Below are positions 9,276-17,000 of a DNA stretch of 64,000 nucleotides, piece after piece. The DNA is taken from the NCBI GenBank assembly GCA_963801505.1, contig CAWDEY010000002.1, positions 14,231 through 78,230 on the forward strand. The letters run 5' to 3'. Both the position numbers and the translations under genes were made by a program. Source of the stretch: an uncultured Nitrospira sp. GTDB taxonomy: Bacteria > Nitrospirota > Thermodesulfovibrionia > Thermodesulfovibrionales > UBA6898. Numbering within the stretch: position 1 is the stretch's first letter; the number at the start of each line of letters is the position of its first letter. Under the pieces are notes generated by a model. It saw only the letters and a list, made by a program, of their open reading frames with translations. It did not search any database and was not told the DNA's origin.

Positions 9276-10719
<1,444 letters not shown>

Positions 10720-10723
<4 letters not shown>

Positions 10724-12041
10724 ACATATTGATAAAAAACGGACATCTGGTTGACCCCTCTCAGGGGATTGACGGCATATGCGATATACTTGTAGAAAAT
10801 GGAAAAATCAAGGAAGTGCAAAAGCGCGGAAGTGCGGAAGCGCGGAAGAAAAAGAATTCGGAATCCCAAAATCCCGGGCCAGCGGGCTATCAGATCATCG
10901 ACGCAACGGACATGCTCGTCCTTCCAGGCCTTGTTGATATGCATGTTCATTTGAGAGAGCCGGGCTTTGAATACAAGGAGACCATACAGACAGGCACAGA
11001 GGCTGCGGTAGCAGGTGGGATCACCTCGGTCTGCTGCATGCCAAATACAAACCCTGTAAATGACAACGCAAGCGTAACTGATTTCATACTGAAAAGGACA
11101 ATGGAGAGAGGATTTTGCGACGTATTCCCTGTAGGCGCCATCACAAAAGGCCAAAAAGGTGAGGAACTCGCTGAATTCGGTATGATGTACGAGGCAGGGT
11201 GTATCGCCTTTTCTGATGACGGCAGGCCTGTCACGGACAGTCTGATAATGCGCAGGGCACTTGAATATTCAAAGATATTCAACGTGCCGGTAATATCCCA
11301 TGCAGAGGACATCTCCCTTTCTGCCGGAGGGGTAATGAACGAAGGGCTCCTGTCGTTCAAACTCGGGCTCAAGGGCATCCCATCGCAGGCTGAAGAGATC
11401 ATGATCTGCCGTGACATCGCCCTTGCAGAACTTACAGGAGGCCGTCTGCATATAGCGCATGTCTCGACAAAAGGCTCTGTTGAACTGATACGGTCAGCCA
11501 AAAAGAGAGGTATCGCGGATGTCACTGCCGAGACCTGTCCTCATTATTTCAGCATCACAGAAGAGGCAGTCGAAGGATATAACACAAACGCCAAGGTAAA
11601 CCCGCCACTGAGAAGAAATGAGGACGTGGAGGCGATCAAGGAAGGGGCTCACGGACAACACCATAGATGTTATCGTCACAGACCACGCACCGCATCACAG
11701 GGATGAAAAACTCGGGGAATTCGATCTGGCGCCTTCAGGCATTTCAGGGTTTGAAACATCAATAGGCCTGAGCATGAAGCTCGTTGATGAAGGGGTCCTC
11801 ACTCTGAAGCAGCTGATAGAGAAGATGACCCTGAATCCCTCAAAGATCGTAGGCATAAGTAAAGGGACGCTTAGAGCAGGGAGCAGATGCAGACCTCGTA
11901 ATTCTGGATACACACAATGAATATACAGTTGATTCAGCCGGCTTCAGATCAAAGGGAAAGAACACTCCTTTTGAGGGATGGAAACTCAAGGCCAGGCCGG
12001 TTGCAACCATCTCAAAGGGAAGGATATATACATGGCAATAA
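10720..12041 (+). pseudogene. pyrC: dihydroorotase gene carrying two +1 frame breaks
   Basis: [14 protein letters not shown] in frame 1. [19 protein letters not shown] follows in the next frame after the GGGG run at 11644-11647. [15 protein letters not shown]...[10 protein letters not shown] follows in the third frame after about 11885. Stop overlaps the carA ATG. Confidence 0.85.
10824..10878 (+). repeat. bipartite short-tandem-repeat element inside pyrC
   Basis: GCGCGGAA GTGCGGAA GCGCGGAA, spacer GAAAAAG, then AATTCGG AATCCCA AAATCCC; encodes [15 protein letters not shown] within a loop preceding the PGLVD metal site. Confidence 0.7.
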
Positions 12042-13210
12042 AGGCGTTACTCGTTCTCGCAGACGGAATGGTCTTTGAAGGCAGTGGTTTCGGTGCAGAA
12101 GGTGAAACTATCGGGGAAGTGGTCTTTAACACCTCGATGACAGGCTACCAGGAGATACTGACAGACGCCTCCTATAAAGGCCAGATCGTCACCATGACCT
12201 GCACGCAGATAGGCAACTACGGCATTACGGAAGAAGACATCGAATCTGCGGGAGGCATAAAGGCAGAGGGTTTTATCGTAAAGGAGGCCTGTGATTTCCC
12301 GAGCAACTGGCGCTCGTCTTCAAGCCTGATTGGATACATGAAAAAATACAACGTCGTCGGCATTCAGGGCCTGGATACCAGGGCCTTGACTAAACATCTG
12401 AGAAACTGCGGGGCGCAGCCAGGGATCATCTCGACCATTGAGGCAGATCCTTTGAATCTTCTGAAAAAGGTCAGGGCCCATCCCGGGATATCCACCTTTG
12501 ATCTTGTCAAAGAAGTGACGACTGATAAGGTCTATCATTGGACAGAGGGTTGCTGGAAATGGGGACTTAACAATGGGATTGGGGATTCGGGATTGGAGAT
12601 TGGATTAAAAGATAAGACTAACCCCCAGCCCCCAATTCCTAATCCCTATAAAGTGGTTGTATATGACTTTGGTGTCAAGTTCAATATTTTGAGAAACCTT
12701 GTGACTGCGGGGTTCCACGTCACTGTTGTGCCTGCACAGACACCTGCAGAGGCTGTGCTTGAAATGCAATCTGACGGCATCCTGCTGAGCAACGGACCAG
12801 GTGACCCTGAAACAGTGACCTACGCGATAGAAAATACTAAAAAATTACTGGGGAGGAAGCCGATATTCGGCATCTGTCTCGGACATCAGATACTAGGGCT
12901 TGCCCTGGGTGGCAGGACGTACAAACTGAAATTCGGCCACCATGGCGGGAACCACCCTGTCAAGGACTTGTCTACCGGCAAAGTCGAGATAACATCGCAA
13001 AACCACAATTATTGTGTAGACATAAAAAGCCTGCAGGGCAAGGTCAGACTCACGCATACAAACCTCTATGACAACACAGAGGAAGGCATGCAGCATCTGG
13101 AACTCCCGGTCTTTTCAGTGCAGCATCATCCTGAGGCTGGGCCTGGACCAAATGATTCAACACATCTTTTTGGAAGGTTCAGGCAACTGATACAAAACGG
13201 TACATTTTGA
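12032..13210 (+). CDS. carA: carbamoyl-phosphate synthase small (glutaminase) subunit
   Basis: [12 protein letters not shown] start, IFGICLGHQ active-site Cys, HHPE; the ORF-track start at 11978 is an artefactual extension across the pyrC 3-prime end. Confidence 0.93.
12575..12646 (+). repeat. bipartite heptamer-array element inside carA (72 nt)
   Basis: GGGATTG GGGATTC GGGATTG GAGATTG ..., spacer AAAAGATAAGAC, then TAACCCC CAGCCCC CAATTCC TAATCCC; the second arm is roughly the reverse complement of the first. Confidence 0.85.
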
Positions 13211-13839
13211 AGAGTGCGGCAGAGAAAAACTATACGATAGACAAAGAGGAGGGCAAACTCATTTTTACTACTCCGGCATACAGGGCTGATCCTGACAGTG
13301 TTCTGCACAGCGGAATATACAACAGGGAGTTTTCATCCATGCTCGCCTCAGCTACCTCAGGCGGGATTGTGTATATAATTACTGCCATGAATACAGGCAA
13401 TACAATTGCCCGTTCAATGGCCTTTCTGCTGACCTTTGCCGTAAGTTTCCCCTTCTTCAGAAAATATATTTTCAGAGAGCACTTTCTGGAAGTGGTCTTC
13501 GATGCTGCCGCCGGAGAGGCTAAGATACTCAAAAGCCGGATAACAAAGAGATTGAAGGAAACGATCTCTATAAAGAACATAAAGGACATCACCATTGAAA
13601 GCAAAAAGCACGAAGCAGACAATCCTGATGCCGTGAGATTTGTTAAACAAATATCCCTTCAGCACGGAACAGTCATCCCCGGCTTTGGTGATGAAAAAAC
13701 ACTCTTCCTGCTGAAACTGCATCTGTCCGACGGTTCTGAAAGGACCATTTATACGGACAATACTATGCAGGATGTGCTCTCTGCACATGATGAAATAAAG
13801 GAATTTCTGGGATTTATAAATGTGCAGGTGGATAGCTGA
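13207..13839 (+). CDS. hypothetical membrane protein between carA and carB
   Basis: 210-aa ORF; TTG start overlaps the carA stop; two central hydrophobic helices; no family recognised. Confidence 0.4.
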
Positions 13840-13863
13840 AGCTGTAAGGTTTCCGGCAGCCAT

Positions 13864-13954
13864 GGCGTCAGGCACAAGGCGTCGGGCATGAGATGACCGG
13901 ACAAGCCGCTGCAGAAATTTGGAACTTGGCAGCCTTCAGACTTCGCTCTAAACG
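13864..13954. repeat. bipartite heptamer-array element, intergenic (orf-carB)
   Basis: GGCGTCA GGCACAA GGCGTCG GGCATGA GATGACC, 21-nt spacer, then TGGAACT TGGCAGC CTTCAGA CTTCGCT CTAAACG. Confidence 0.65.
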
Positions 13955-14002: not shown

Positions 14003-17000
14003 TTGCCAAAGAGAGAAGATATTAAAAGCATCCTTATCATCGGCTCAGGTCCGATTATCATAGGACAGGCCTGTGAGTTTGATTACTCCGGAACGCAGTC
14101 ATGCAAGGCCCTGAGAGACGAAGGCTACAAGGTCATTCTGGTAAACTCCAATCCGGCAACTATCATGACGGACCCTGAGACCGCTGACGTCACTTACATC
14201 GAGCCGCTCAATGTCGAGATCCTGGAGTTGATCATCGAAAAGGAGCGTCCTGATGCAATACTGCCCACCATGGGCGGTCAGACAGCGCTGAACCTCACAG
14301 TCGAACTCGCTGAAAAAGGCATTCTCGAAAAATACAACGTTGAACTCATAGGGGCCAAACTCCCTGCGATCAAAAAGGCCGAGGACAGGGAGCTGTTCAA
14401 AAAAGCTATGGCGAAGATAGGACTGGATGTCCCCAAAAGCTCGGCAGTAACCAGCATGAAAGAGGGGCTTAAAGCTGTGGAGCATTTAGGGTTCCCCGCA
14501 ATACTCAGACCTGCTTTTACACTCGGTGGAACAGGCGGAGGCATAGCCTACAACATGGAAGAATACACGGAACTCCTAGATAAGGGGCTGAAGCTCAGCC
14601 CCGTAAGACAGGTCCTTGTAGAGGAATCAGCCCTGGGATGGAAAGAGTATGAACTGGAAGTCATGCGGGACACGAAAGACAATGTTGTTATCATATGTTC
14701 CATAGAGAATTTTGATCCCATGGGAGTGCACACAGGGGATTCAATAACCGTGGCACCGGCCCAGACACTGACTGACAAGGAATATCAGAGGATGAGAGAC
14801 GCCTCTGTCGCGATCATCCGCGAAATAGGCGTTGACACGGGAGGGTCGAACATACAGTTTGCGATCAATCCTAAAAACGGCCGCATGATCGTCATAGAAA
14901 TGAACCCGAGGGTCTCAAGGAGTTCCGCTCTTGCGTCAAAGGCAACAGGTTTCCCGATTGCCAAGATAGCCGCCAAACTCGCGGTAGGACTTACCCTCGA
15001 TGAGATAAAAAATGACATAACACGTGAAACACCTGCATCCTTTGAGCCTACGCTGGACTATGTGGTGACCAAGTTCCCGAGGTTCGCCTTTGAAAAATTT
15101 CCCGAGGCAGACCCTGTGCTGACCACCCAGATGAAGTCTGTAGGAGAGGCCATGTCCATAGGCAGGACCTTTAAGGAATCCCTGCAGAAGGCCCTCCGGA
15201 GCCTTGAGACCGGAAGTTATGGTTTTGAGGAAGTCGACGGCGACCCTGACAGGATAAAGACAAAGCTGAAGATCCCCGGCGCTGAACGGATATGGTATAT
15301 CGCCCAGGCCATGCGTATTGGCATGGATATAAATACAATACATGAATATACACAGATAGACCCGTGGTTCCTGGAAAATATAAAGCAGATACTTGATATG
15401 GAAGATAAGATCAGGGCGGAAGCCCGGAAAAGGGAAAGAGCAGAAGGTCAGAAGCAGAAAAACATCGGCCCTTTGGACTTCCGGTCTTCAGCACTTCAGA
15501 ACCTCAGCACTATTGTCCGTGAGGCCAAGGAATACGGGTTCTCTGACAGAAGGCTGGCACAACTGCTCGGCACCGCGGAAATGGATGTCAGGGGATTCAG
15601 GAAGAAACATGGCATAGTCCCGATATATAAGATCGTGGACACCTGCGCTGCGGAGTTCGAGGCCTTTACCCCCTATCTTTATTCGACCTATGAAAGACCG
15701 TTCTACAAAATACAGGAGTCAGAAGTCAGAAGTCAGAAGTCAGAAGAAAAAAACAACTCGGAACTCGGAACCCGGAACTCGGAACTATTTTTTGATTGCG
15801 AGGCAAACCCCACAGACAGGCAGAAGGTGATCATTCTGGGGTCAGGCCCAAACAGGATAGGACAGGGAGTTGAATTCGATTATTGCTGTGTCCACGCAGT
15901 ATTTGCCCTGAGAGAACTAGGATATGAGACCATAATGATCAACTGCAACCCCGAGACAGTAAGTACAGACTACGATACCTCGGACAGACTCTATTTTGAA
16001 CCGCTCACTATCGAAGACACACTGAATATCATCGAAAAAGAGAAACCTATCGGCGTGATAGTCCAGGTAGGAGGTCAGACTCCTCTGAAGCTGGCGGTGC
16101 CCCTTGAAAAGGAAGGCATCAGGATCCTCGGGACCTCCCCGGATTCCATAGACCGCGCTGAGGACAGGAAACGTTTCAAGCAACTCCTCCATAAACTTCA
16201 GCTGAGACAGCCTGAAAGCGATACAGCCATGTCCGTGGAGGAAGCTGTCTCGGCAGCCCACAAAATCGGTTATCCTGTAATGGTACGGCCTTCCTATGTG
16301 CTCGGAGGAAGGGCCATGGAGATCGTCTATGATGAAGAGTCTATACGCGATTATATGGAGCGAACTGTAAAAGGCGCTCCCAAGCACCCCATCCTTGTCG
16401 ACAAATATCTGGATGATGCGATAGAGGTGGATGTTGATGCCCTCTCTGACGGCACGGACGTGATAATCGGCGGGGTAATGGAACATATAGAAGAGGCAGG
16501 CATACATTCCGGGGATTCGGCCTGCTCGCTGCCCCCCTATTCCCTTAACAACGATATCATCGCGGAGATCAAGCGGCAGACCAGCGCCCTGGCGCTCGAG
16601 CTGGGAGTTATCGGTCTTATGAACATACAGTTTGCGGTAAAAAAAGACGAGATCTATATCCTTGAGGTCAATCCCCGGGCTTCCAGAACTGTCCCTTTTG
16701 TCAGCAAGGCCACCGGCGTGCCGCTGGCAAAGCTCGCGGCAAAGATAATGGTCGGCAAGACCCTTAAGGAACTCGGGATAACAGAGGAAAAGACAATATC
16801 ACATGTCGCAGTGAAAGAAGCTGTATTTCCCTTTGACAAATTTGCCGGCGTTGACTCCATACTCGGGCCTGAGATGAAGTCAACCGGAGAGGTCATGGGA
16901 ATAGATGAAGATTTTGGACGGGCCTTCGCCAAGGCCCAGGCCTCCTCAGACAATGTGCTTCCCATAACAGGAAAGATAGTCATCAGCATCAGAGACAAGG

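Follow-up and report, generated by a model that had tools for sequence, protein, structure and literature searches.

Evidence for an old, translated copy of a lineage-specific short-unit repeat in a dihydroorotase loop of an uncultured Nitrospira sp.

The pyrC gene of an uncultured Nitrospira sp., which lies in the 64,000-nucleotide stretch of DNA that we analysed (the window), carries a repeat-bearing segment in the variable loop at positions 10810–10893 of the plus strand (residues K31–Q58, between the strand ending GKI and the strand starting IIDA, as delimited by loops in the ortholog alignment). We consider it likely that an old copy of a repeat class peculiar to the lineage lies here, translated and partly decayed, carried as a passenger in a loop that tolerates it. 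In the source genome its left arm is intact, its right arm has decayed and the hairpin is gone. An earlier note, made from the sequence alone, had described the segment as a repeat array by which a dihydroorotase loop gains residues; the letters and coordinates it quoted are present, and the addition of residues is confirmed by a gap in the Aquifex alignment, by the spans of NCBIfam matches and by loop lengths across Nitrospirota, all given below.

The plus-strand gene order in this part of the window is putative pyrB, pyrC, carA, a 210-aa ORF and carB. The first of these is a 307-aa ORF in the ORF list at 9800–10723 (+), named putative pyrB from its operon position alone, and its stop overlaps the pyrC start at 10720 in an ATGA. 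pyrC itself runs from 10720 to 12041 (+) and has 439 codons when two single-base assembly frameshifts are discounted, as judged from NCBIfam matches, orthologs and frame analysis; its orthologs are 439–441 aa long. NCBIfam dihydroorotase models hit both pieces of the gene, and all of the top NCBIfam hits are dihydroorotase. TIGR00857 scores 280.0 bits on the first piece alone (cut-off 279.05), and the second piece corresponds to profile positions 290–376. The product contains the metal-binding Asp-x-His-x-His motif and aligns with the Aquifex aeolicus dihydroorotase (3d6n) at E 3e-87, and from its sequence it is predicted to be a bacterial type I dihydroorotase (PyrC, amidohydrolase superfamily).

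In the assembly pyrC occupies three frames owing to two single extra bases. The first is an extra base in a run of four G (11644–11647, +), placed by the reading frames and by a short-read contig of run X4 that is without one base at 11647; the second is at or near a G run (11874–11881, +), placed by frame analysis and by a 99%-identical contig of run X1 without one base at 11876. Contigs of two public metagenomes thus each have one base fewer, at one place apiece. The matching public runs were all contig sets, with no RNA run listed among them, and the best contains a fraction of 0.26 of the sampled words. Because the short-read contigs are without the extra bases, we take both frameshifts to be probable assembly errors of the long-read type, and pyrC is probably intact in the organism; on the same ground a pseudogene was rejected as the likeliest reading. 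Read past both frameshifts, the C-terminus fits the ortholog consensus and the gene ends at 12041. Arrays of 7- and 8-nt units combined with long-read errors in G runs make genes of metagenome-assembled genomes look frameshifted or like pseudogenes when they are neither. As for the neighboring genes, the ORF finder starts carA at 11978, its conserved N-terminus runs from an ATG at 12032, and this ATG overlaps the restored pyrC stop at 12039–12041. The 210-aa ORF between carA and carB (13207–13839) has a TTG start that overlaps the carA stop, and an NCBIfam search gave no match for it.

The left array of the pyrC copy spans 10812–10848 (+) and consists of 4.6 octamers of the GGAAGYGC type. It begins within Glu-Val codons, 12 nt before the start that had first been given for it, and the 8-nt unit then proposed for this arm holds. 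Tandem Repeats Finder reports it in two rows, 10822–10848 (period 8, 3.4 copies, score 47) and 10812–10848 (period 16, 2.3 copies, score 60), and at a lag of 8 its self-identity reaches 0.69 in the best window of 40 nt, whereas the rest of the gene does not exceed 0.48. An A-rich spacer follows at 10849–10854 (+), read from the sequence and forming part of a stretch that does not differ between L001 and L011. The right arm, at 10855–10893 (+), is degenerate and ends in conserved Gly-Tyr-Gln codons. It had been described as made of 7-nt units, and that description fares less well: the heptamers at 10855–10875 are weak (4/7 in-register matches), and beside the orthologs L005 and L011 the arm is better read as four or five decayed octamers extending to about 10893. 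The heptamer reading was set aside because the octamer register fits better in this comparison.

The whole element is about 82 nt long and its units have no GGG tract. The right arm does not pair with the left, and the copy folds as RNA no better than shuffled sequences (z +0.46 and z +0.32 in two computations); a hairpin reading of the pyrC copy was rejected on these values. A near-identical short-read contig spans 10768–10929 with zero indels. No target-site duplication of the MITE type is visible at the borders of the element, but the copy is old and its borders may have eroded.

Compared with dihydroorotases from outside the lineage, the segment is an insertion. The phmmer alignment to 3d6n has a 14-residue gap facing residues 39–52, and the corresponding 14 codons (10834–10875, +) have no counterpart in the Aquifex enzyme. 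The NCBIfam profiles tell the same story, with residues 1–310 matching profile positions 1–295. Between the two flanking strands the source protein has 29 residues, whereas Nitrospirota from outside the order have 14–16 (phylum-wide sample of 25 Nitrospirota loci); the roughly 14 extra residues are found neither in the Aquifex dihydroorotase nor in the other Nitrospirota classes sampled. Nor does the segment align to any conserved residue of dihydroorotases outside the lineage, an alignment that would have counted against the original description. The extra residues are hydrophilic and mostly basic, and modelling suggests that they probably form a disordered surface loop; they probably have no part in catalysis. 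In an AlphaFold2 model of the ortholog with the most similar insert (P0106, mean pLDDT 72.6), residues 38–53 have pLDDT <50 and are flanked by strands >90, but several further segments also have low pLDDT and, because the model is only moderately confident overall, the values for the loop are weak evidence of disorder.

The insertion is not a fresh one, however. A variable segment of 17–31 residues is present at the same protein position in all of the 29 species-level orthologs examined from the same order, and the loop is occupied in every ortholog from the family and in most of those from the order; a loop of baseline length (14–17 residues) is found in the order members L027 and L030. A recent insertion was rejected because the orthologs also have the loop. 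The periodicity is shared as well: in 19 of the 29 orthologs the most 7/8-periodic 40-nt window of the gene's first 960 nt falls in the loop, and in nine of them the loop's periodicity score is 0.64–0.85, while control windows never exceed 0.56. The units, and even their periods, vary between orthologs, with octamers of the GGAAGYGC or GAAGTCAG type in some and heptamers such as GGCAAGG, AAGTCAA and AACTCAG in others. In L005 the arms are still complementary and fold with z -3.9.

In a tree built without the loop, the source pyrC groups with its genus mates (support 94/96). The insert of these genus mates is of a different type, 31 residues long, and the type found in the source genome is shared with L011 and L005, members of other genera. 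Most simply, the source genome's type would be the ancestral one, and a single replacement would have taken place in the sister clade. Loop identity within the genus clade is 42–61% at the protein level, compared with 83–86% for the remainder of the protein, and loop length is nearly constant within clades. Judged from these sequence identities, the faster evolution of the loop would fit relaxed constraint.

The pyrC segment belongs to a class that is abundant in the source genome and specific to the lineage. Arrays of at least 2.8 copies number 190 in the genome (130 of period 7 and 60 of period 8), compared with 10 (six and four) in an equally large sequence simulated with a fifth-order Markov model; at a score of at least 40 the genome has 70 and 20, respectively, and the simulation has none. 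The modal period genome-wide is 7. The class architecture is one of two arms, each of three to five tandem 7- or 8-nt units, around an A-rich spacer, and well-preserved members fold as bulged hairpins. A strict definition yields 165 elements genome-wide (0.056 per kb), 81 of them within ORFs, 68 intergenic and 16 at ORF edges. As ORFs make up 84% of the genome and intergenic DNA 16%, element density is about 4.4-fold higher in intergenic DNA, an excess to be expected if coding copies are mostly removed. Among heptamer units within ORFs, 8/72 have a stop on the sense strand and 47/72 on the antisense strand; survival and orientation in genes thus depend on the avoidance of stops.

Three further elements of the pyr operon lie in carA and carB; that these two genes carry sister copies had been proposed, and the copies are real. 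The carA copy (12575–12646, +; Tandem Repeats Finder) has G-rich and C-rich heptamer arms, contains GGG tracts and forms a true hairpin (fold z -3.5). The first carB copy (15406–15511, +) is octamer-periodic, of a GAAG/CTTC type, and is supported by shared repeat families and by a Tandem Repeats Finder row at 15486–15511; two repeat families link it to the pyrC copy, of which it is the closest sister within the operon. The second (15713–15786, +; Tandem Repeats Finder) consists of two heptamer arrays, both clean, that lack complementarity to each other. The carA and carB copies were said to have the same bipartite layout as the pyrC copy. That is correct for the architecture but not for the fold, as the carA copy alone is a hairpin and the pyrC and two carB copies are not (z +0.3, +0.6 and +2.6, respectively). 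A fourth copy was placed in the spacer upstream of carB, and a repeat-family search and the sequence do locate an intergenic copy there (13861–13954, +); it is weak, and Tandem Repeats Finder does not report it.

With four elements in 8.1 kb, the operon has about nine times the genome average and about 15 times the coding average (Poisson P 1.6e-4 for a pre-chosen coding window). The suggestion that its density exceeds the genome average is therefore right, but the operon is not unique in this. Windows with at least four in-ORF elements make up 0.9% of the total and are grouped in about six patches; since these are equally dense, elements cluster in general, and the idea that the operon enrichment is something special is weakened. 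Relatives, too, have elements at the carB sites, so the load of the operon is old and does not reflect a recent local burst.

Translated copies are found in unrelated proteins, namely those of pyrC, carA, carB and a sensor kinase. In the last of these, a HAMP/HisKA sensor kinase of the source genome, the copy lies in frame in the HATPase_c domain (L069:1388-1470, corresponding to G000:C26:21687-21769). It is an intact hairpin with a fold z of -2.35 and belongs to the GGAAG-type octamer family of the pyrC copy.

Comparison of these sites among genomes shows the same unit families at different sites. The first carB site in genome G017 (L034, G017:C13) carries the octamer family that the source genome has in pyrC, and the second carB site in G011 (L035, G011:C105) has the same octamer family, there as a perfect hairpin. 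The copies thus seem to have exchanged sequence rather than evolved purely in place. Conversely, the heptamer family of the second carB site in the source genome is one found in pyrC of other species. The sites are inherited, whereas a given unit family turns up at several of them; conversion between copies would produce such a pattern, and so would re-insertion if it happened repeatedly. Contigs from X2, a wetland metagenome, match the window only over the array (10815–10848), and the DNA on either side of it is unrelated; arrays nearly identical to this one must therefore occur at other loci or in other organisms.

The history that we favor for the pyrC segment is as follows. The element entered, or grew in, the pyrC loop at a time when the family had not yet divided into its genera, and it has been inherited vertically since then. 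In some lineages the arrays would have been renewed, with units that drifted or were swapped. A difficulty for this history is that arrays could stay clean across an order only if some process actively renewed them; we infer that this was replication slippage and/or conversion from other copies, which would explain why periodicity is clean in many orthologs despite 20–35% divergence of the surrounding gene. Selection would have kept the frame, avoided stops and kept the loop harmless, and nothing more, so that the loop itself would be neutral. For pyrC this passenger history means very little, as the enzyme is an ordinary one that most likely carries the loop without harm or benefit. The site is nevertheless a useful marker for the class because the gene is universal and easily aligned: it displays one site occupied across an order of bacteria, periodicity that is kept while the unit and even the period change, and the same unit family at different sites in different genomes. 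It offers a tangible means of studying the origin and persistence of short-unit repeats in bacteria, matters still to be settled for the cyanobacterial heptamer repeats.

More tentatively, and with the odds in our view clearly against it, an active lineage-specific process might rewrite the same few permissive housekeeping loops with whichever 7–8-nt array family is current, through targeted re-insertion or templated conversion, and the left-arm tract might then be held constant at the nucleotide level because the machinery binds it or acts on it. If this were true, the sites would be inherited and the sequence exchanged.

The left arm is conserved in a way that neutral decay does not predict, which counts against the passenger history. 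Overall, pyrC of the source genome and that of L011 have 69% DNA identity, whereas over the 34 nt of left arm and spacer the identity is 94%, higher than in any other window of the 922 nt compared. In a 30-nt window that covers most of the left arm and spacer, 9/10 third codon positions are identical, compared with 18/50 in five flanking windows. L011 was picked after the data had been seen, so the significance of this conservation is overstated, and we treat it as a possible lead rather than a test. The island is an argument for supposing that the array acts at the nucleic-acid level, with the tract of GGAAG every 8 nt serving as a putative binding array or signal in the pyr mRNA or DNA (for an RNA-binding regulator, for example) and the added residues being a by-product. 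A 19-nt version of the left arm, which occurs five times in the source genome at up to two mismatches (about 0.04 expected) and also in five relatives (the reversed control gave three hits in 41 genomes), could be taken in the same sense, as could the octamer unit, which is multi-copy in G017 and G011. We nonetheless think a role of this kind unlikely. In comparison with the genus mates (L002–L004 and L010) this stretch, at 35–41% identity, ranks with the least conserved; they have replaced the tract by an unrelated one and the gene has apparently not been lost. Units and even periods vary among orthologs, and the copies in unrelated genes and in intergenic DNA are not placed in any shared way with respect to start or stop codons. 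Moreover, a multi-copy family with conversion gives the same conservation with no function needed, and the multi-copy status of the octamer family is a plausible non-functional cause of the conserved left arm.

Could the loop instead be an adaptive feature of the protein, extending the N-terminal domain by a flexible, basic segment that contacts, for example, aspartate carbamoyltransferase? Nearly all family members have 27–31 residues here, always rich in Lys and Arg, and a nine-residue motif recurs in several genera. Yet the basic composition follows from the purine-rich repeat units in all three reading frames, the loop evolves much faster than the protein's remainder, and the enzymes of L027, L030 and all of the other classes sampled function with the 14–17-residue baseline. 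Similar repeat-coded loops in carA, carB and the sensor kinase also speak against a role peculiar to dihydroorotase, and we regard adaptation as improbable.

A contingency locus, in which gain or loss of 8-nt units switches pyrC off and on, would make use of the fact that a change in copy number of such a unit shifts the frame. In the genus mate G005 (L023, G005:C3) the pyrC frame does break within that gene's own G-rich heptamer array in the orthologous loop, either by unit slippage or by a G-run assembly error. But G005, in about 20 contigs, may be a long-read assembly, and G-run errors, of which the source pyrC has two, are the simpler cause. Nearly all of the 17 proteins listed (83–86% identity and below) have a length of exactly 441 residues and none is broken, the X1 contig has an array of identical length (although it is a contig and not raw reads), and three to five imperfect units give little slippage. 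Switching at this site is accordingly very improbable. That the segment is nothing specific, either chance low-complexity coding sequence or an assembly artefact, is scarcely credible: the right arm alone would fail a chance test, but the array counts far exceed those of the simulation, the independent contig mentioned above crosses the array without indels, and orthologs have homologous arrays at the same site.

Our search of the literature for heptamer or STRR-type tandem repeats in this Nitrospirota lineage found no report. Mazel and colleagues reportedly described cyanobacterial STRR sequences, said to be heptanucleotide repeats, in 1990. The passenger copy in pyrC and its class can be set beside several other systems. 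GGGNATC heptanucleotide repeats of Xanthomonas and Nostoc are over-represented in non-coding DNA and under-represented in ORFs (Rehm et al. 2015; PMC4692102). The Nitrospirota class resembles these and the cyanobacterial repeats: short arrays of the 7-nt class, typically of about four units, dispersed and in excess in non-coding DNA. However, the pyrC copy has period 8 and not exactly 7, and no G-tracts; the Nitrospirota units vary by locus with no single consensus and often form two arms around a spacer; and about half of the Nitrospirota arrays lie within ORFs and are translated. The G-quadruplex type of GGGNATC repeat has four or more consecutive G-tracts (Rehm et al. 2015), whereas the pyrC copy is without GGG.

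Rickettsia palindromic elements resemble the present class in a different respect. They lie in frame in unrelated housekeeping genes and encode an extra peptide at positions compatible with the protein fold (Ogata et al. 2000, as summarised in PMC10969869), much as the elements in pyrC, carA, carB and the sensor kinase are read through in frame. According to that summary, the Rickettsia elements are about 100–150 bp long and palindromic, with a conserved family consensus and peptide, while the pyrC element is about 82 nt, tandem, variable and unfolded. The Nitrospirota class thus differs from both heptanucleotide repeats and Rickettsia palindromic elements in its two tandem arms, its locus-specific units and its high intragenic share.

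TAACTGA heptamer direct repeats are known from Beggiatoaceae, Cyanobacteria and Bacteroidetes, in an account that makes no mention of Nitrospirota (MacGregor 2015; PMC4679880). They too are abundant heptamer direct repeats of unknown origin, patchy among lineages, but they have one fixed unit and lie mostly in intergenic DNA just upstream of start codons (PMC4679880), whereas the Nitrospirota units vary and many arrays are translated.

REP/REPIN sequences (Bertels and Rainey 2011; PMC3116915) are likewise short, dispersed, hairpin-type repeats with families common to related genomes and conserved site occupancy. They are extragenic, have a fixed palindromic consensus and are mobilised by RAYT transposases (PMC3116915), in contrast to the Nitrospirota arms, which are tandem arrays and often intragenic; the pyrC copy is intragenic and not palindromic, and so is unlike them. 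The sole Y1-transposase-like gene in the genome (L043:1465-2385, G000:C17) encodes 306 aa with a Y1 domain and a DnaA C-terminal DNA-binding domain, and scores 68.9 bits, under the RAYT cut-off of 80. No tandem arrays were found beside it. With this one DnaA-fused, sub-cut-off Y1_Tnp-like gene and no adjoining arrays, mobilisation of the RAYT type has no support.

Within its own class the pyrC feature is ordinary; what it adds is long persistence at one site with turnover of the units, together with one unexplained island of nucleotide conservation. The largest array of the family seen in the genome is a long intergenic tract at G000:C20:112575-112700, in which some 15 degenerate octamers share an AAG core.
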